Shown one piece after another: positions 45,797 through 54,231 of a stretch of DNA of 64,000 bases. The translations under genes were made by a program, and so were the position numbers. This stretch comes from Candidatus Eiseniibacteriota bacterium (GTDB taxonomy: Bacteria; Eisenbacteria; RBG-16-71-46; CAZAMP01), in contig OZ245046.1 in NCBI GenBank assembly GCA_965224245.1, forward strand, positions 4,384,001 through 4,448,000, written 5' to 3'. The first letter of the stretch is position 1. Every line of letters begins with the position of its first letter. Below the pieces are notes generated by a model. The model was not told the origin of the DNA. It did not search any database and worked only from the letters and a program-made list of their open reading frames with translations.

Positions 45797-46771
45797 ATGC
45801 CGACGTTGCTTCTGAGCCTGCTTCGAGATCCCCGCCACTACCAGATCGGCGTCCTGGCCGCGCTCCTGGCCTACGGGCTCACCGCCCTGCGCTTCCCGAT
45901 CCCGGCCTGGCAGGTCCCGGTCACGGTCTCGGTCGCACTCTCGACCCAGTGGATCCTCACCCGCCTCGTGGGCCTCCCGGCGTTCGACGCCCGGAGTCCG
46001 CTGATCTCGTCGCTGTCGCTGTGTCTGATCCTCCGGTCGGGGAGCCCCTGGATCATCACGCTGGCCACCGTGGCGGCGATCGCGAGCAAGTTCGTCCTCC
46101 GCACCGGGGGGCGGCACATCTTCAACCCGACGAACTTCGGGATCGCGCTGGTCCTGGCGGTGACCCCGAGCCACGGCGCCTGGATCTCGCACGGTCAGTG
46201 GGGCAGCGTGGTTCTGGGCGCGTTCTTCTTCGCCTGCATGGGCGGGATCGTCGTCAATCGCGCCGCCCGAAGCGACGTGACGATCGCGTTCCTGGCCTCT
46301 TACGGCGCGATCGTGATCGGTCGCTCGCTGTGGCTCGCGGAGCCGCTGGCCATCCCCATGCACCGCCTCGCCAGCGGCGCGTTCCTGCTGTTCGCGTTCT
46401 TCATGATCTCCGACCCGAAGGCGACGCCGGACTCCCGGCGGGGTCGGATCGCGTTCGCCGCGCTCGTGGCGATCGTCGCCGCGGTGGGACGGTTCGGACT
46501 CAACGAGCCCAACGCGCTGATGTACGCGCTCGTCCTGTCGGCGCCAACGGTCCCGCTCTGGGACCGGCTGTTTCCCGGAACCCGATACGAATGGGCCTCG
46601 CGCGCGGCCGTCGCGCGGCGCGGGGTCGTCGCGCGGCGCGGGGTCGTCGCGCGGCGCGGGGTCGCCGCGATTCCGAACCCGCGCGTCCGTTCGCGCAAAG
46701 GAGATGCTCATGTGGACCCGAGCCACCGCGATGCTGGTCTTGGCCGGCCAGCTCCTCACGCCGTCGGCTGA
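45797..46771 (+). CDS. Stand-alone RnfD/NqrB-like membrane protein
   Basis: DPRHYQI, SKF...HIFNPTNFG, FFMISDPKATP. Confidence 0.8.
   Translation: MPTLLLSLLRDPRHYQIGVLAALLAYGLTALRFPIPAWQVPVTVSVALSTQWILTRLVGLPAFDARSPLISSLSLCLILRSGSPWIITLATVAAIASKFVLRTGGRHIFNPTNFGIALVLAVTPSHGAWISHGQWGSVVLGAFFFACMGGIVVNRAARSDVTIAFLASYGAIVIGRSLWLAEPLAIPMHRLASGAFLLFAFFMISDPKATPDSRRGRIAFAALVAIVAAVGRFGLNEPNALMYALVLSAPTVPLWDRLFPGTRYEWASRAAVARRGVVARRGVVARRGVAAIPNPRVRSRKGDAHVDPSHRDAGLGRPAPHAVG
46610..46663 (+). repeat. Perfect 18-bp tandem repeat x3 (GTCGCGCGGCGCGGGGTC)
   Basis: Read directly; encodes (VARRGV)3 near the end of the RnfD-like ORF. Confidence 0.9.
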
Positions 46772-48056
46772 GGCGTTCTGCGGCTTCTACGTCGCGAAGG
46801 CGGACGCCGAGCTGTTCAACCAGGCCTCTCGCGTCGTGCTCGTCCGGAGTGACGACAAGACCGTCATCACGATGGCGAACGACTACGAGGGCGACCTCGA
46901 CGAGTTCGCGATGGTCGTGCCGGTGCCGGAGCTGATCACCCGGGACCAGATCCACGTCGGCGACCCGGCCGTCCTCGATCACCTCGATGCGTACAGCGCG
47001 CCGCGCCTGGTCGAGTACTTCGACTCCGACCCCTGCCGGGTCGTCTACGAGCGCGACATGGCGCTGATGGCCGAGGCGCCGACCGCCGGTCGCGGTGGGC
47101 GTCCGGACGAGCTGGGGAAGGCGCTCGGGGTCACGATCGAGGCCTCCTACACGGTCGGCGAGTACGACATCTTGATCCTGTCCGCCGCCGAGAGCGACGG
47201 GCTGGTGACCTGGCTCACCGCCAACGACTACCGGATCCCCGACGGCGCCGAGCGCGTGCTCGACGGCTACATCAAGCAGGACATGCGCTTCTTCGTGGCC
47301 AAGGTCAACCTGGGCGAGCAGCGCGCGCTGGGGGTGACCAACCTCCGACCGCTCCAGATCGCGTACGAGTCGAGGAAGTTCATGCTTCCGATCCGACTCG
47401 GAGTGGTGAACGCGAACGGCCCCCAGGACCTGATCCTCTACACGCTGACCCGCGACGGGCGAGTGGAGACGACGAACTATCGCACGGTGCGGCTCCCGTC
47501 GGACCAGGAGCTCCCGGAGTTCGTGGAGGCGGAGTTCGACGACTTCTACCGCGACATGTTCGCCCGTCAGGTCGCGCGCGAGCGCGGGCGGGCGGTCTTC
47601 CTCGAGTACGCGTGGAACATGTCGTGGTGCGACCCGTGCGCGGCCGACCCGCTGAGCCGGGACGAGCTGCGAAGCCTCGGCGTGTTCTGGCTGGACGACG
47701 GCGACGTCTCGCTCCGTCCGCGACGCGGTGGCGGGCCCCAGAACGTCTTCGTGACGCGCCTCCACGTGCGCTACGACGCCGAGCACTTTCCGGACGATCT
47801 CTTCCTCCAGGAGACCGGTGACAGCTCGAACTTCCAGGGGCGCTACATCCTGCGTCATCCGTGGACGGGCGACGCGACGTGCGACGCGGCGCGCGAGTAC
47901 CGCAAGCAGCTTCGCGATCGGCAGGAGCGCGAGGCAGAGACCCTGGCCAGCCTCACCGGCTGGAATCTGGACGACATCTACGATCGGATCGACCTGGCCG
48001 ACCCGATGACGCCCGGCGGGGATGTGCCCTGGTACAAGAAGCTCTGGCGGAACTAG
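46710..48056 (+). CDS. DUF2330-family exported protein
   Basis: Signal peptide then AFCGFYVAKAD, FAMVVPVP, FMLPIRLG, CDPC, NFQGRY. Confidence 0.88.
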   Translation: MWTRATAMLVLAGQLLTPSAEAFCGFYVAKADAELFNQASRVVLVRSDDKTVITMANDYEGDLDEFAMVVPVPELITRDQIHVGDPAVLDHLDAYSAPRLVEYFDSDPCRVVYERDMALMAEAPTAGRGGRPDELGKALGVTIEASYTVGEYDILILSAAESDGLVTWLTANDYRIPDGAERVLDGYIKQDMRFFVAKVNLGEQRALGVTNLRPLQIAYESRKFMLPIRLGVVNANGPQDLILYTLTRDGRVETTNYRTVRLPSDQELPEFVEAEFDDFYRDMFARQVARERGRAVFLEYAWNMSWCDPCAADPLSRDELRSLGVFWLDDGDVSLRPRRGGGPQNVFVTRLHVRYDAEHFPDDLFLQETGDSSNFQGRYILRHPWTGDATCDAAREYRKQLRDRQEREAETLASLTGWNLDDIYDRIDLADPMTPGGDVPWYKKLWRN

Positions 48057-48390
48057 CGCTCCAAGCCCGGAGCGTCCCGCATCGACTGTTCGGCCGGCCC
48101 TCGACCCGTTCGCCCCCGCCGCGTGCGGACCCCCGGTTGACGGGGCGATGGGTCGGCCTCCAGTTGGACCACCGGCAACTGTGAGGAGACAATCTGGAAT
48201 GGGCATCGGGCATCTTCGTGTGCCTCAGGGGTCCATTCGCCAGGGGCCAGACCTCTCCGCCACCGCTTTCAGTCGGGCCGCCGCCCTATAGACGACAACT
48301 CCAAGTGACGATGCGATCGTTTCGGTGCTATGTTCCGGATGTTGTGGTCGGGCGCTGCCTATCTGGCAGATCAAGGGATTAGGCAGACCA

Positions 48391-48437
48391 GCCTAACCGT
48401 CGCCGAGATACGCGGACCTGTCGAACTGTCGTTAGAA
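48391..48437 (+). repeat. Degenerate/short attC-like site
   Basis: GCCTAAC ... GTTAGAA, only 47 bp with weak internal stem. Confidence 0.35.
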
Positions 48438-48443
48438 GGACGA

Positions 48444-48472
48444 TTGACCCGATGTGCCTTTGGTTGTACGCT
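48444..48472 (+). promoter_or_regulatory. Promoter of Phd/RelE-type TA cassette
   Basis: TTGACC-17-TACGCT; overlapping palindrome GTACG-N6-CGTAC (48466-48481). Confidence 0.6.
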
Positions 48473-48495
48473 TGCACGTACCAATGGAGGTGCGT

Positions 48496-48777
48496 ATGGG
48501 CAAGGTCCCCGAGATCATCCCGGTGTCCGACTTTCGACAAGACGCTGCGGCGGTGCTGAAGCGCGTCCAAGGAGCGAAGGACCCGTTCGTCATTACGCAG
48601 CGAGGGCGGGCGGCCGCAATTCTACTGAGCGTCGAGTCATTCGAGCGAGGCGAACACGAGCGGTCCTTGCTGCGACTTCTTGCTCGCGGTGAGCGGGAGA
48701 TTGCTGCTGGGTCAGGTTACTCGCTCAGCGACGTGCTCGCGGAAGCGGATGCCCTGCTCGCGGACGACGAGGCGTGA
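48496..48777 (+). CDS. Phd/YefM-family antitoxin
   Basis: IIPVSDFRQDAAAVLK...PFVITQRGRAAAILLS; GGAGG RBS. Confidence 0.9.
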   Translation: MGKVPEIIPVSDFRQDAAAVLKRVQGAKDPFVITQRGRAAAILLSVESFERGEHERSLLRLLARGEREIAAGSGYSLSDVLAEADALLADDEA

Positions 48778-49055
48778 GGGTTCGCTTCACTCCGGGTGGA
48801 CGGGCCCAGTTCTTGGCGGCGGTTCAGTACATTCGGCAGGATCGCCCCTCCGCAGCCCGGAAGTTCCGCAGACGTTGCGAGACTGTATTGCGCCGGCTCG
48901 AGCGGTATCCGGAATCTGGTCGGGTGGTTCCGGAGTTCCCCGAGCTTCCGTATCGAGAAGTGGTGGTTCCACCATACAGGTTCTTCTATCGAGTCAAGGG
49001 CAAGACCGTCTGGGTCGTTGGCGTATGGCACACAGCTCAGGTGCCCCGCACATAA
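48774..49055 (+). CDS. RelE/ParE-family toxin
   Basis: YIRQDRPSAA, YPESGRVVPE, YRFFYRV, VGVWH; GTGA overlap with antitoxin. Confidence 0.9.
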   Translation: MRVRFTPGGRAQFLAAVQYIRQDRPSAARKFRRRCETVLRRLERYPESGRVVPEFPELPYREVVVPPYRFFYRVKGKTVWVVGVWHTAQVPRT

Positions 49056-49069
49056 ACGGACGGCCGCCA

Positions 49070-49135
49070 TTCTAACGAGTGCGTGAAGCGGAGGGTCCGC
49101 TGCGCGGCCCGCCGCTTACGCCCAGTACGTTTGGA
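49070..49135 (+). repeat. attC site
   Basis: TTCTAAC; GCGT(G)AAGCGG pairing with CCGCTTACGC leaving an extrahelical G; right end GTTTGGA (one deviation). Confidence 0.75.
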
Positions 49136-49149
49136 GGAACGAAGAATGC

Positions 49150-49434
49150 TCAAGCGGCGAGGCGACGAACCTTGAGTTTCTTTCGATTCTGCTCGGCCAG
49201 CCAGAGGTCGTACTGGACCTGTTGGTTTAGCCAGCTCTCAGCCGACGTATCGAACGCGATCGACAATCGTACGGCCATCTCGGGGCTAATCCCCGCTCGG
49301 CCGTTCAGAATGGCGGAGAGGGTCTTGCGGCTGATACCGAGGGCCTTGGCGGCTTCGGTGACGGTCAGCCCCATGGGCTCAAAGCAGAGCTCTCGAAGTA
49401 CCTCACCTGGGTGGGGCGGGTTGTGCATCTTCAT
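49150..49434 (-). CDS. higA: HigA-family antitoxin
   Basis: [37 protein letters not shown]. Confidence 0.95.
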
Positions 49435-49444
49435 CGTACAGACC

Positions 49445-49726
49445 TCAGTGGTAGTCCTCGTAGTCAACGTTCTCAACATCCTTCCCGCGAAACGAGAAGG
49501 TTATGCGCCAGTTGCCACTGACTTTCACTGCCCAGGTGCCCTTGCGCTTCCCCTTCAAGGGGTGAAGGTCGAGCCCGGGCAGGTTCATATCGCGCGGTTC
49601 GGTGGCCACAGAGAGCCTGCCGAGGATGAGTCGGAGGCGGTCTCTGTGCTTGGCTTGTATTCCGGCTGCGGAGCCCTTGGTGAAGAAGCGCTCCAGGCCC
49701 TTGTGGCGAAACCGAAGGATAGCCAT
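49445..49726 (-). CDS. higB: HigB-family (plasmid killer-type) toxin
   Basis: [33 protein letters not shown]. Confidence 0.95.
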
Positions 49727-49734
49727 CGATGGCG

Positions 49735-49763
49735 AATGTAACCTATAACGTATCGGGTGTCAA
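49735..49763 (-). promoter_or_regulatory. higBA promoter (near-leaderless)
   Basis: Minus strand TTGACA-17-TACATT, ending 8 nt before the ATG. Confidence 0.7.
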
Positions 49764-49776
49764 GTAGGGCAAGTCC

Positions 49777-49882
49777 TCCTAACGACCCGCTGCACCTGAC
49801 GGCCCGCGGCGCGTGGAGGAGGGTGGAGTTAGACGGACCCCGGCTGCGCCGCGGTCCGCAGGTGAGCGTCAGGGCGTTAGGC
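49777..49882 (+). repeat. attC site
   Basis: TCCTAAC ... CGCT(G)CACCTG / CAGGTGAGCG ... GTTAGGC; 106 bp with long central palindrome. Confidence 0.88.
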
Positions 49883-49897
49883 TGAGACCGTAAATAA

Positions 49898-49929
49898 GCC
49901 ATTGACGTAGTAAGTCAATGGCGTATATT
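49898..49929 (+). promoter_or_regulatory. brnT cassette promoter/operator
   Basis: Perfect inverted repeat GCCATTGAC-N7-GTCAATGGC overlapping TTGACG-16-TATATT. Confidence 0.72.
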
Positions 49930-49936
49930 GTTGCAC

Positions 49937-50227
49937 GTGGAAGTCACATGGGATGAGGCGAAGAACCGCGCCAACGTAACCAAGCACGGGCTCTCCTTCG
50001 AGGAGGCGAGTCGGCTCTTCACGTCTGGGATGGACTATCTGGAACTCTCCGACGAGCGTCATTCGGAGGATGAAGAGCGGTTCATCGCGCTCGTGCCCGT
50101 GAACCGAGGTGTCGTACTGGTCGTGTGGACCGAAGAAGACGAGGATGTTCTGCGAATCATCAGCGCTCGGCCTGCGACCAGACGCGAGCGTGAGCATTAT
50201 GAGGCATTCCTGGGAAAACGAAGATGA
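49937..50227 (+). CDS. brnT: BrnT-family toxin
   Basis: WDEAKNRANVTKHGLSFEEA, EERF, RIISARPATRRER..Y. Confidence 0.93.
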   Translation: MEVTWDEAKNRANVTKHGLSFEEASRLFTSGMDYLELSDERHSEDEERFIALVPVNRGVVLVVWTEEDEDVLRIISARPATRREREHYEAFLGKRR

Positions 50228-50514
50228 GTGACATTCCTGAACTTAGTGCGAAACAGCTGGCGCGAGCCATTCCGGCGCGGGTTAGGAAGCGCCTGATGGC
50301 TGGCAAGTTCGAGTCCGGTGCGGATGTTCTAGCACTTCGTCGTTTCGTAGGGCTGACGCAGGTGCGGTTCGCGGAGGCGATGGGGATCAGCGTTCACACG
50401 CTGCGCAATTGGGAGCAAGATCGCCGCTTGCCCGAAGGGCCGGCGATTGCGCTTCTGCGCATCGCGGCAAGGCATCCTCGGATCATCCGCGAGAACCTCG
50501 ACTCGGCTGCGTAA
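50224..50514 (+). CDS. XRE-type HTH antitoxin
   Basis: LTQVRFAEAMGISVHTLRNWEQDRRLPEGPAIALL; ATGA overlap with toxin. Confidence 0.88.
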   Translation: MSDIPELSAKQLARAIPARVRKRLMAGKFESGADVLALRRFVGLTQVRFAEAMGISVHTLRNWEQDRRLPEGPAIALLRIAARHPRIIRENLDSAA

Positions 50515-50590
50515 CTCGCCAGCCTACCCTGCAGTTCTCGTCTTTCGGCGTAGCAGGCTCCAAACCTGGGAAAGTGACGGGGCGGTGAGC

Positions 50591-51097
50591 ATGTCGAGGA
50601 CGGTACCGGCAGCGGTCGTTCTTCGGGTAGTGCTGGCTCTCGGCGGCGCGATCGCCGCCCTGCTGCTGTGGCTGTTCCTAGGTCTGGCGACGGTACTGCT
50701 GTCAGGCGATTGGGGAGCGTCGTCGGCTGAACGTCACATCGGTACTCACTTCTTCGTGACTCTCCCAAGCGCCATCTACTTGGCTACAGCGGCAACCGTT
50801 CGCCTCACGCGCGTGAGGTTTCGTGGCTCGTCGAAGGACGCGCTCCTGTCTTCGCCGTTGCTCGCAGTTGGTCTCTGGACTGTATCGCAGTCGCTGACGG
50901 GGCTACCGTCTTCGGCCCTGTTGATGGCAACGGTTGGTGCATCGGTTGTGGGTACGTTCGCGGGCCTATGGGACGGCTGGCTCAGGGTCATGGCGAGCTT
51001 GATTCCGCGCGCGGTACCGGTGGGGGTTCGTTTGTGGCTGTCGTTGGCGGTCTCGGGAGTGGTCGTGGCATTGGCGCTGGCGACTCGAGTCAGCTAA
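50591..51097 (+). CDS. Hypothetical membrane protein (cassette gene)
   Basis: About 5 hydrophobic segments; stop codon lies within the AGCTAAC of the next attC-like site. Confidence 0.6.
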   Translation: MSRTVPAAVVLRVVLALGGAIAALLLWLFLGLATVLLSGDWGASSAERHIGTHFFVTLPSAIYLATAATVRLTRVRFRGSSKDALLSSPLLAVGLWTVSQSLTGLPSSALLMATVGASVVGTFAGLWDGWLRVMASLIPRAVPVGVRLWLSLAVSGVVVALALATRVS

Positions 51098-51161
51098 CCC
51101 TTTCGAACTACTCCCTGGTGCGGGCAACGTGCGCATCCAGGGCGCAGTCGACTCTCTAGGC
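51092..51161 (+). repeat. Degenerate attC-like site
   Basis: AGCTAAC; CCCTGGTGCG / CGCATCCAGGG stem; right end TCTAGGC instead of GTTAGGC. Confidence 0.5.
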
Positions 51162-51220
51162 GCGGAGAGCATCAGGCTCGAAGCGGTCGAGTATGTAGAG
51201 CCCGATGAAGGGCCAAGCCC

Positions 51221-51282
51221 GTCCAACGGCGCGTCAAGCGGCCGGCGTTTCGCGCCACCGCCGAGCACCGAGGCCGTTAGGC
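51221..51282 (+). repeat. attC-like site (degenerate inner stem)
   Basis: GTCCAAC ... GTTAGGC, 62 bp, imperfect inner stem. Confidence 0.55.
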
Positions 51283-51606
51283 CGCACGTCGCTCAGCGGT
51301 GGTGATGATCCGAGCGACGTCCTTGGTCTTGGCACCAAGCGCGAGAAGTGCGCGCACGAGGAGGTCGAGGGAGACCGTTGAATCGGCAGCTTCCATCTTC
51401 GCGACGCGCGACTGGCTGGATTCCAGGAGCTTCGCTACCTGTGCCTGGGTGAGCTTGCGGCGTGTTCGTCGAAGACGGAGGTTCCTGGCGAGAGCGAGCT
51501 TCATCTCGATGAAGGCTCGCTCCTCGGCCGTGAGCTCGAGGAACTCCCCCGCGGAGCCAACTTGCCAGCCAGCGGCTTCGAGTCGGCTCTTCTTGGTCTT
51601 CTTCAT
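51277..51606 (-). CDS. XRE-family HTH antitoxin
   Basis: LEAAGWQVGSAGEFL, LTQAQVAKLLESSQSRVAKMEA. Confidence 0.9.
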   Translation of the reverse strand: MKKTKKSRLEAAGWQVGSAGEFLELTAEERAFIEMKLALARNLRLRRTRRKLTQAQVAKLLESSQSRVAKMEAADSTVSLDLLVRALLALGAKTKDVARIITTAERRAA

Positions 51607-51610
51607 CTAG

Positions 51611-51955
51611 CTACTCTTCACGCGTGGCTCGGTCGTAGGCCTCGAGCCGCGCCTTGCACGTGTCGATCACGGACGCCGGTGTCTTCTGCGTCTTCTTGCT
51701 GAACACCTCGAGAACGACTACCGCATCCGGGTCGAGCCGGTACATGATTCGCCAGGTTGCGGTCTCGTCTCGAATCCGCAGCTCATGGCAGCGGCGGCCG
51801 ATCGACGGCATCGGTCGCGAGTGGGGTAGCGAGATACTCTCGCCCATCTGGAGCTGGCGCAGCAAGAAACCGGCTTCAAGCCGTGCTGACTTGCTGAATG
51901 GTGGCGATTTCACCTCGCCCTCGAGCCAGACGAGCGGCTTCCCTGCCCCTTTCAT
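51611..51955 (-). CDS. RelE/Gp49-like toxin
   Basis: KPLVWL.GEVKSPPFS, SRPMPSIG.RCHELRI, WRIMYR, VFSKKTQKTP. Confidence 0.92.
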   Translation of the reverse strand: MKGAGKPLVWLEGEVKSPPFSKSARLEAGFLLRQLQMGESISLPHSRPMPSIGRRCHELRIRDETATWRIMYRLDPDAVVVLEVFSKKTQKTPASVIDTCKARLEAYDRATREE

Positions 51956-51963
51956 CAACGAAC

Positions 51964-51992
51964 AGGATATGTCATATCTGACATTCGGTCAA
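51964..51992 (-). promoter_or_regulatory. Gp49-like TA promoter/operator
   Basis: Minus strand TTGACC-17-TATCCT; palindrome ATGTCA-TATC-TGACAT (51969-51984) in the spacer. Confidence 0.72.
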
Positions 51993-52019
51993 GGATCGAT
52001 GCTGGCAGGGAGCGGCCCG

Positions 52020-52079
52020 GCTGAATAGTGGAGCTGGCGGTCGCCTTCGGCGCCCGCAGCTCATCTGTAGACGTTAGAT
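52020..52079 (+). repeat. attC site (left core degenerate)
   Basis: TG(G)AGCTG / CAGCTCA stem with extrahelical G, central TTCG hairpin; right end GTTAGAT. Confidence 0.7.
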
Positions 52080-52118
52080 GATGGAGGAGTGAACCCCTGA
52101 GCTCCGACCCATCATCGA

Positions 52119-52405
52119 GTGTCGAGCATCTTCCTCGAGCCCCCGCCGCTTGCGTGGCGCGCGTGCGGGAACGGGTGCGAAAGGGTGGCCATGCGGTGCC
52201 CGAGACCGATGTTCACTGGCGTTTCCTCCGTAGCATCAGCAACTTCTGGCGCGCTCATCGGTTCGGTGTCCAGCGGCGGCATCTGTTCTACAATGCCGGC
52301 ACCCAGTTCGCGTGGCTGGCTGGCGGTGTTGACGCCGAGGTATCGGTAGGTGATGACCCGCTGTACGAGCGGCTCCTCTCCATCGCCGAAGGAGCGGGCA
52401 AGTGA
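52119..52405 (+). pseudogene. 5'-truncated zeta-toxin-like/AAA ATPase remnant
   Basis: ARVRERVRKGGHAVPE.DV..RF.RS..NF resembles the C-terminal half of this family; no P-loop; apparent frameshift after IFLE. Confidence 0.65.
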
Positions 52406-52554
52406 TCAAACGAAACGACGACGTCGATCTCGATCTCGTCGCAGAGGGGCAAGCGTTTCGACGCATCGAAAGCCGCGCAGTCGAGCAGACACAGGCGGAG
52501 AGTCGCGGGACCGAGCTCGCGGCCGTTCGCCAATCACCAGACCGGAGGATGTAC

Positions 52555-53163
52555 GTGAACACCAAGGCGCTCGTCGCGATGTGGCTCGGAATCATGCTCG
52601 CGCCCCTTTCGCTCGCGGCGCAGTCGGGTGTACGCGTGGAGAGCCACGACGACGAGATGGAATCGTGGACGTATGCGTATACCCGGGCCGACCACGGCCC
52701 CGTCCTGACCATCGACGACCGGGGCATCACCTTCGGCCGCTCCCCCTGCTTGATCTTCCTGTGCACGGCCGGGGGGATGGAGGTGGTCTACTGCTTCGAT
52801 ACGGAGCTGATCGGTGAGGCGGGGACGGTCCTGGTCCAGTCTCGCTTCGACTCCCGTCAGGCCTCGAAGCCGGAGCCGTGGCCGACGGTCGTGGACCCCA
52901 GCGACGAGGGCGGTCTCGAGGCGGCGGCGGCGGCCATGGGCGTGGACGAGACGAACGCGTTCCTGGAGATGTTCGGGAGCACGGTGCGCGCCGCCGGGCT
53001 CTCCGGCGAGGACGTCGAGGCCTTCCTGACCGAGGCCGCCAGCGCCGAGCAGGTCACGATGCGCGTCACCGACCAGTTCGACGGAGAGACTCACACCGAC
53101 GTGTTCTCCCTCGAGGGGCTGACCGATGCCCTCGAGCAGATCCGCGCGACCTGCGAGCGCTGA
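52555..53163 (+). CDS. Hypothetical exported protein
   Basis: GGAGG RBS, GTG start, signal peptide ending SLA-A; GC3-rich codon usage. Confidence 0.7.
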   Translation: MNTKALVAMWLGIMLAPLSLAAQSGVRVESHDDEMESWTYAYTRADHGPVLTIDDRGITFGRSPCLIFLCTAGGMEVVYCFDTELIGEAGTVLVQSRFDSRQASKPEPWPTVVDPSDEGGLEAAAAAMGVDETNAFLEMFGSTVRAAGLSGEDVEAFLTEAASAEQVTMRVTDQFDGETHTDVFSLEGLTDALEQIRATCER

Positions 53164-53275
53164 GCCGGAAGTCGTCCGTTCGGGGTTTCTGATACGATGC
53201 CACCGGCGTTGCAACGTCGCCGCGCGCGCACCCGCGCCGGAGCCGCGACGCCATGGCCTCGACGGAAGAGCCATC

Positions 53276-53476
53276 GTGACCCGAACCTCACCCGACACGT
53301 TCACGTCGCCGTGCACGGGCCTCTGCACGCTCGATCGTGAGACCGGCATCTGCGACGGCTGCTACCGTCACATCGACGAGATCGTCGCGTGGGCAACCCT
53401 CGGTGCGGAGGCGCGCCGTGAGGTGATGCGACTGACCGAGGAGCGCCGCCTCGCGGCCGAAGGGGAGATGCCGTGA
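53276..53476 (+). CDS. DUF1289-family small Cys-rich protein
   Basis: SPCTGLCTLD...CDGCYR.IDEI..W. Confidence 0.85.
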   Translation: MTRTSPDTFTSPCTGLCTLDRETGICDGCYRHIDEIVAWATLGAEARREVMRLTEERRLAAEGEMP

Positions 53477-54231
53477 GCACTCACGACTACAACTACGAGT
53501 CCTTCCCGATCGATCTGTGTGCCGGCGAGTTCGAGGCGTTTCGAGAGGCGGTGCCCGCGGGATCGCCCGCGCCGGACGGAACGCTCGTCGACGCCGCGAC
53601 CGGCGAGCCGGTGTCGCTGTCGACGTTCTGGAAGCGGGGACCGGTGCTCATCGAGTTCGGGTCGATCACCTGACCGTACTGCGGGCTGGCGGCGCCGGCC
53701 CTCGAGCCGATGGCGGATCGGCATCGCGACGACGTCGCGTTCGTCTTCGTCTACACGCGCGAGGCCCACCCGGGCGAGAAGACCCCCGCGCACGCGTCCA
53801 TGTCCGACAAGCTCCGGCGCGCCCGCGAGATGGTCCAGCGCTTCGACATCCGACGGCCGATGCTGGTGGACGATCTCGACGGCACGCTCCATCGGGCGTA
53901 CGGGTCGCTCCCCAACATGTCCTACCTGGTCGCGACCGGCGGTACCGTCACCTACCGCGCCAACTGGACCGACGCCCGGACGGTCGAGATGGCCGTCGAG
54001 CAGCTCCTCCACGAGCGGGCCGCCCGGCGCGATCGCGCGCGTCTCGCCCCGTACTACATGGAGATGCAGCCCCAGCGGATCAACGAACGAGCTCCGTTCA
54101 TGGAGGCGCTCCTGGAGCTGGCCGGGGTCCGGGCCGTCGACGAGTTCATCGCGGCGATCGGGCACTCCTACGGCGACGCGGCCGCGGGCCCGCTCCGACG
54201 ATGGTGGTCGGATCGATCGTCCGCGGGATGA
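53473..54231 (+). CDS. Iodothyronine deiodinase-like thioredoxin-fold selenoprotein (Sec at TGA 53671-53673)
   Basis: ORFs 53473-53673 and 53710-54231 are in one frame; read-through gives PVLIEFGSIT-U-PYC...FVFVYTREAHPG. Confidence 0.88.
53683..53701 (+). promoter_or_regulatory. Candidate bacterial SECIS element
   Basis: GGGCTGGC-GGC-GCCGGCCC 8-bp stem starting at +10 after the UGA, with G in the apical loop. Confidence 0.6.

Follow-up and report, generated by a model that had tools for sequence, protein, structure and literature searches.

Why would a small cassette array that has no integrase consist mostly of toxin-antitoxin (TA) pairs? The question is raised by a locus at positions 48391-52545 of a 64,000-nucleotide stretch (hereafter the window, C1:4384001-4448000) of the chromosome of Candidatus Eiseniibacteriota bacterium, whose assembly comprises 6.94 Mb, with a main contig of 6.45 Mb, and is 97% complete. 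A preliminary description of the window proposed that this locus is a decaying, integrase-less array of integron cassettes in which addictive cassettes had been selectively retained. The array itself is borne out by our analysis: it is dominated by TA modules, its distal attC recombination sites are damaged, its fifth TA pair is truncated, and no integron integrase gene (intI) was found. We regard it with high confidence as the remnant of an integron that has an attI at its head and no integrase. Neither arrays without an integrase nor TA cassettes are rare or new to the literature, and the element is of a known kind; what is unusual is its high TA share. For the full account, in which the remnant was shaped by a bias towards TA retention in an excision-prone orientation, we put the probability at roughly 0.55.

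Recombination sites were identified with a covariance model (R1) derived from 28 short attC sites of relatives, none of them from the window. The base pairs of this model covary (0 of 500 shuffles reached the score), and it returned 0 matches at E<=1 in 1,040,361 control bases around homologues of DUF2330, the gene to the left of the array. R1 replaced a genome scan with strict, hand-written attC rules, which found only the site at 49777 and missed a second array described below. Every R1 match in the window lies on the + strand, in agreement with the single orientation first proposed, and the best match elsewhere in the window reached 12.6 bits. The two attC sites closest to the head are intact, while the distal ones are damaged. 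The site at 49070-49135 (+; 41.7 bits, bottom-strand z -3.07) has an intact fold with one change in R', and that at 49777-49882 (+; 51.1 bits, or 24.9 as a partial match in the window scan; z -5.51) has a long terminal hairpin. Further along, 51092-51161 (+) is a probable decayed attC with no R1 match, a bottom-strand z of -2.25, and the stop codon of the upstream gene in its R box. The decayed attC at 51221-51282 (+; 17.6 bits, E 0.12; z -0.09) has its R boxes present and its L boxes mismatched, and a strong attC occupies the homologous position in a relative (G034). At 52015-52079 (+; 23.7 bits, z -2.53), L boxes and R' are intact and the left R box is lost.

Among the six attC-like sites originally listed, R1 thereby recovers 49070, 49777, and 52015, and weakly 51221, with 51092 a probable site by its fold and the stop codon in its R box, and the sixth, 48391-48437, reassigned below. 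The label "clear" suits 49070-49135 and 49777-49882 but was too generous for 52015-52079, because its left R box has lost its AAC. Likewise, the extrahelical G reported earlier is found on the top strand, whereas the recombining bottom strand carries a C at the L-box extrahelical position, as do 77 of 90 sites at 14 loci of relatives. G is the usual extrahelical base according to the available text of PMC5027507, and a C at this position recombines well according to that of PMC3053210. An 8-nt right spacer is found in 45 of the 90 sites of relatives (20 of 65 without the largest array), and both the bottom-strand C and this spacer were rejected as novelties, since they are class-wide. One more attC is expected after the third cassette, beyond 50526, where only its first five bases are left; that it survives there in mutated form was rejected, since 666 of 2000 shuffles scored equally well. 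Intact attC cores number 36 of 64 in genomes without intI vs. 95 of 106 otherwise, and site decay in the absence of intI is therefore general, whereas TA enrichment is not.

The segment 48391-48437 differs from these sites. The preliminary description had itself stated that a lack of covariance hits and of bottom-strand folds would speak against the array; neither applies at 49070, 49777, or 52015, but both apply to this segment, which has no R1 match and no bottom-strand fold (z +0.62). Instead, its right part matched two loci of a relative (G065) by blastn: in one, the match falls on the stretch that separates intI from cassette one, and in the other it stands at the head of an array that lacks intI. 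The corresponding attI-type site spans 48409-48437 (+), with an L box at 48419-48425, a 5-nt spacer, an R box at 48431-48437, and the crossover after 48431. This pattern was detected in 4 of 206 genomes: the present one (G000) and G066 with one copy each, G065 with three exact copies, and G050 with one that has two mismatches. It also occurs in one metagenome contig; a reversed-pattern control yielded 2 matches, and the G050 match is taken as chance. The end of intI lies upstream of the motif by ~260 bases in G065, ~195 in G066, and ~900 in the metagenome contig, and attC sites follow downstream in the G065 and G066 cases, G066 and the metagenome contig having had no part in shaping the pattern. 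Under a matrix compiled from 15 sites of relatives that were selected by eye, the window site ranks 1 of 113,740 GTT positions, and 4th without the G065 row. All seven bases of its R box are moreover complementary to the left box of the attC that follows (49070); 57 of 96 successive pairs of sites in relatives show this relation, vs. 8% of random pairs. As judged from sequence, then, 48409-48437 is an attI and not an attC, and since its first site is an attI, the array would represent the head of an integron and not a detached cassette cluster. A scan for sigma-70-like sites, blind to other promoter types, found no cassette promoter between DUF2330 and attI. The same attI is present in G065 three times, once after intI and twice (L239, C16:26598; L244, C42:464897) with no intI within 1.5 kb; the latter two share a longer leader and are possibly heads of satellite integrons served in trans.

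The rest of the genome was searched for an integrase, as the preliminary description had advised, and the array is integrase-less as claimed: none of 46 candidates (46/46 examined) passed the cut-off of the TIGR02249 profile in this 97% complete genome, an unassembled copy being possible, and tblastn with 8 IntI sequences of relatives reached ~30% identity over long alignments, with a best E of 0.11 in the window. Of 60 relatives belonging to the class, 31 yielded an intI in the same search, a tally that takes in the unpublished genome G053. Arrays of relatives sit downstream of intI in the same orientation, and almost nothing was found when they were sought upstream; the available text of PMC4889954 names integrons with this layout the inverted-integrase group. 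The present array shares with the inverted-integrase integrons of its class the attI motif, the attC style (bottom-strand C, 8-nt right spacer), and cassette families, but unlike them it has no intI, and its distal attC sites are eroded.

With four R1 matches in a 3-kb span, three of them at E<=0.005 and the fourth at E 0.12, every one on the + strand, and with no integron integrase in the window or over the cut-off in the genome, the array fits the definition of a CALIN (clustered attC sites without an integron integrase; available text of PMC4889954), with which it shares two or more attC sites in one orientation, the lack of intI both nearby and genome-wide, and its small size. It differs from a CALIN in the attI at its head, which is not part of that definition, and in that most of its units are TA cassettes. 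Compared with a complete integron, intI is absent and attI is present by sequence and position homology. Sedentary chromosomal integrons have more than 10 cassettes in the definition used in the available text of PMC13108822, and this array has seven units.

Four of these units contain intact TA pairs. Cassette 1 (48432-49129, +) encodes a Phd/YefM antitoxin (48496-48777) and a ParE-family toxin (48774-49055), with a palindrome at 48466-48481. Cassette 2 (49130-49876, -) encodes a HigB toxin (49445-49726) and a HigA antitoxin (49150-49479), with a promoter-like site at 49763-49735. Cassette 3 (49877-50526, +) combines a BrnT toxin (49928-50227) with a helix-turn-helix (HTH) antitoxin (50224-50514), and its promoter-like site (49902-49929) is overlapped by a palindrome with 9-bp arms. 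Cassette 6 (51277-52073, -) combines a Gp49 (RelE-like) toxin (51611-51958) with an HTH antitoxin (51277-51606) whose stop sits in the R box of the upstream site, and carries a promoter-like site with a palindrome at 51992-51964. Pfam confirms all four pairs named in the preliminary description (Phd-RelE/ParE, HigBA, BrnT-HTH, and Gp49-HTH), with E-values of 1e-15 for Phd, 4e-15 for ParE, 1e-17 for HigB, 2e-23 for BrnT, and 6e-14 for Gp49, and finds an HTH partner for HigB, BrnT, and Gp49; Phd and HigA are also over the NCBIfam cut-off. The toxins are near full profile length (88/89, 90/91, 77/77, and 84/90 positions for the ParE, HigB, BrnT, and Gp49 pairs), and HigB matches solved HigB chains at E 2.6e-21 (PDB 4MCT). 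A toxin-family gene adjoins an antitoxin-family gene in 4 of 4 intact pairs, as in type II TA systems, and we predict from family membership that all four are type II TA pairs. Likeness to known type II families (Phd-ParE; HigBA, PDB 4MCT; BrnT, PDB 3U97 and 7VD7; Gp49-HTH; zeta-like AAA_33) is at the family level and includes the layout of two overlapping genes, but BrnT is paired here with an HTH protein and not with BrnA, and the same BrnT-HTH pairing recurs in relatives. Consensus matches to sigma-70 promoters precede three of the four pairs (4 sites found vs. 0.6 expected), and three of the four have perfect palindromes in their leaders, as sequence matches.

The remaining units are damaged or carry no recognized TA gene. 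Unit 4 (50591-51097, +) is a 168-aa hydrophobic open reading frame (ORF) whose stop codon falls in the left box of the next site; it had no Pfam, NCBIfam, or PADLOC match and no homologue in two protein searches, and its atlas score of 0.87 is a lead only. Unit 5 (51162-51220) is a gene-less stretch of 59 bp between two sites and may be a collapsed cassette. Unit 7 (52074-52548, +) is a truncated zeta-like cassette that has kept its leader, with its partner gene cut and its attC absent. It corresponds to the decayed fifth pair noted previously, here resolved as the C-terminal half of a Zeta_toxin/AAA_33 protein with a cut-off partner: the toxin gene matches residues 102-184 of a 186-aa Zeta_toxin/AAA_33 protein (P0001) at 79%, and its N-terminal half, which contains the P-loop, is absent and was not found in the genome. 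In G047, whose array carries intI, the zeta-like module is complete and forms one of the cassettes; going by family names it would be a TA pair. Among the matches listed, tblastx of the spacer regions gave low-complexity matches only.

The distribution of these modules across genomes indicates that the units are mobile cassettes. The preliminary description would have been contradicted by TA genes forming a syntenic core in relatives, but DNA homologues of single window modules occur in 42 of 205 relatives, singly and reshuffled. Homologues of cassettes 1 and 2 are found in reverse order with attC sites in G051, a Gp49-HTH homologue is found inside a complete, intI-bearing integron in G034, and all five TA or TA-like modules occur as cassettes elsewhere. 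R1 matched at just 5 of 29 homologue loci, so that most homologues have no detectable attC nearby; at the 24 loci without a match (L175, L176, L177, L179, L180, and others of L174-L202), the attC of a cassette may have been lost, or the short model may have overlooked it.

A search for further attC clusters, also proposed previously, revealed a second array in the same genome at C1:2951792-2963731 (minus strand, 11 to 12 sites, no intI; L170, G000:C1:2951792-2964230). This array lies directly after clpB, starts at half an attC with no attI motif, and retains both core triplets in 4 of 12 sites, with decay growing towards its tail. It includes a copy of cassette 3 (C1:2962990-2963640) identical at 631 of 651 positions (97%), the identity beginning at the crossover and ending five bases into attC; this copy kept its attC and has a one-base gap (frameshift) in brnT, whereas in the window brnT is intact and the attC is gone. 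We rejected an origin of both arrays from a single one broken in two by a 1.47-Mb inversion, unless the event is ancient, as the skew of the interval is normal and 347 of 601 long genes are on the leading strand. Away from both arrays, a single weak R1 match (24.5 bits; G000:C1:3344355-3344408, L172) is either chance or a lone site. Among relatives, one array (L140, G021:C8:295100-315000) has at least 25 near-identical attC of 133-137 nt and repeated cassettes, with no TA among the ORFs scanned.

The orientation of the array relative to replication offers a possible reason for its TA content. Chromosomal dnaA is at C1:4852377, and the cumulative GC skew curve bottoms out at 4,823,248 and peaks at 1,652,978, with five of six local 40-kb bins in agreement; dnaA position and skew minimum place the attC bottom strands of the array on the lagging-strand template, i.e., in the excision-prone orientation. 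According to the available text of PMC5371416, 25 of 30 sedentary integrons are in the leading orientation, and lagging ones are smaller. When the Vibrio array was inverted, excision rose from <7e-5 to 3e-2 and cells were killed through TA loss (available text of PMC13108822), and the inverted orientation selected for integrase inactivation (available text of PMC11023631). The likeness to the sedentary integron of Vibrio cholerae and its "cassette loss killing" in these two sources lies in type II TA cassettes that each bring an attC and, here putatively, a promoter of their own, an excision rate set by replication orientation, and integrase inactivation as an escape. The V. cholerae array is however large and leading, with an integrase and 19 TA cassettes of 179, and was inverted only in the laboratory (PMC13108822, available text), whereas the present one is small, naturally lagging, without integrase, and 4/7 TA. 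The outcome of the Vibrio inversion therefore suggests a candidate mechanism for the TA residue.

Under such a mechanism, IntI, acting here or from elsewhere in the genome, would have inserted cassettes singly at attI, cassette 1 being the last. With no recognizable cassette promoter, ordinary cassettes would have been silent and free to lose, and in the excision-prone orientation they would have excised often, while TA cassettes with their own promoters would have killed or arrested cells losing them, and would thus have been retained. After the loss of IntI, point changes and deletions would have erased attC sites from the distal end, hitting non-TA units and one toxin gene and freezing the rest. 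The damage observed is located at the attC after cassette 3, in unit 5, and twice in unit 7, with none within the four intact pairs. The excision-prone orientation suggests that non-addictive cassettes were purged, and among the possible causes of the TA share we rank highest a retention of addictive cassettes to which orientation contributed, by a small margin over random draws from a pool rich in TA; to retention bias as the cause we give even odds.

To set the TA share in context, modules were tallied per interval between attC sites in relatives. The intI-linked set included 12 arrays from 11 genomes (127 intervals, of which 5 longer than 3.2 kb were dropped, leaving 122), with 73 of 88 small ORFs scanned, presumed duplicates and ORFs near 180-200 aa being left out; its TA count includes two unscanned duplicates and leaves out the zeta cassette of G047. 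The integrase-less set included 16 arrays with no full intI next to them (73 intervals, 4 of the original 77 having been dropped), with 54 of 54 ORFs scanned. ORFs were chosen by composition; applied to the window, this procedure picked up one gene or more from every pair. DUF4160 and DUF433/DUF5615, which we take to be TA families, were counted as such. The window share, 4 of 7 units, exceeds the pooled 25 of 195 intervals (13%; Fisher p 0.009), although this p-value overstates the difference because the window was chosen for its TA richness, and intervals may hold more than one cassette.

Other comparisons weigh against retention bias. Integrase-less arrays are not enriched in TA modules (8/73 intervals vs. 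17/122 in intI-linked arrays, Fisher p 0.66), so that the selective retention first proposed is plausible here but not echoed in other such arrays, and genomes without a full intI have TA in 5 of 53 intervals. Two arrays of G005 reach 4/11 and 5/13 TA. The second array of the present genome, in the leading orientation, has four TA or putative TA in its first 10 units (p 0.64 vs. the window) and none in ~9 further units. No orientation effect was detected across 9 arrays of four relatives (3/22 lagging vs. 7/48 leading, p 1.0; oriC taken at dnaA), and no lost cassette was observed, the comparison set being relatives outside the genus. A single locus cannot establish a mechanism, and these small tests gave no support for it as a rule. 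The TA-richest intI-linked arrays (L142 and L150 of G005; L135 of G007) have a damaged-looking intI, with split or short matches and, in G007, a stop at codon 108; damaged-intI arrays have 11 TA in 33 intervals vs. 6 in 89 in the rest, 9 of the 11 coming from one genome.

The main alternative is that no retention bias existed, and that a seven-unit array drew four to five TA cassettes by chance from a TA-rich pool before its integrase was lost. We consider this possible, if somewhat less likely. It gains from the TA-rich front of the second array (4/10) in the opposite orientation, from the lack of either an orientation or a CALIN effect in relatives, and from the adjacent TA cassettes of a complete integron (G034), and at the G005 rate (9/24) the probability of at least four TA in six units is 0.15; it sits poorly, however, with the pooled baseline of 13% and with observed breaks that spare the four pairs. 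Positive selection for TA cassettes as an antiphage or stress island, rather than addiction, appears improbable. TA are the commonest recognized defence systems in integrons (10.1101/2024.07.02.601686, available text), and the four pairs are intact, three with promoter-like sites, but among 11 proteins scanned PADLOC 2.0 gave weak HTH matches for three antitoxins and none for any toxin, which does not amount to a defence island, one toxin is truncated here, and the second brnT copy is frameshifted; this role, raised in the preliminary description, thus finds no support. Finally, a reading of the locus as a TA gene cluster with chance palindromes or as core genes, for which it can be said that two of the six named sites have no model match and one is weak, is already contradicted by independent model matches, attI homology, the exact cassette ends of the duplicate copy, and modules found singly and reshuffled in relatives, and we give it almost no credence.

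The array is embedded in DNA of different composition, as first described: its GC content is 0.619 vs. 0.681 and 0.701 in the 5-kb flanks, and only 5 of 1552 chromosome windows of the same size have a GC as low. To its left, the DUF2330 gene ends at 48056; DUF2330 was not found in G001, the one same-family genome, and no attC was found near DUF2330 in 89 loci examined. To its right lies not a DUF1289 gene, as previously stated, but a host-like gene of 204 aa (52549-53163, GC3 0.92) with no match among 205 relatives, into which the cut partner gene of the zeta-like cassette continues in frame (52402-53163). No empty site or excision joint was found in array-covering contigs from four sequencing runs of one study, the best carriers of which may be the assembly's own sample. 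No RNA sequencing run is listed as carrying the array, and Rfam gave no match in 47500-53500. Elsewhere in the window, a short tandem repeat (~18 bases) at 46605-46670, near the end of an NQR2/RnfD-like gene, coincides with breaks in short-read contigs, and at 53473-54231 a TGA following "GSIT" lies between two ORFs in the same frame, the second of which weakly matches deiodinase; we presume this to be a selenocysteine-containing deiodinase-like or redoxin gene.

Taken together, this locus represents a compact natural case in which lagging orientation, TA load, and loss of the integrase come together, a link previously drawn only from experiments in Vibrio, with an internal comparison provided by a second array in opposite orientation and with one cassette in common. 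By analogy, the array could be a natural end-point of the inverted-integron experiment, with attI, in the excision-prone orientation, serving as a one-way trap which ordinary cassettes would enter and leave while addictive ones accumulated until their load selected for integrase loss; we view this as a tentative and rather unlikely extension, and found no report of a natural case in our searches of open-access papers, although supplementary lists of integron orientations and TA content could hold similar ones. The site at 48409-48437 also illustrates that an attI can pass for a decayed attC, and some "CALINs" may be reactivatable integron heads. If the trap were general, the places where integrons die and the sources of chromosomal TA clusters could be predicted from orientation and TA load together.

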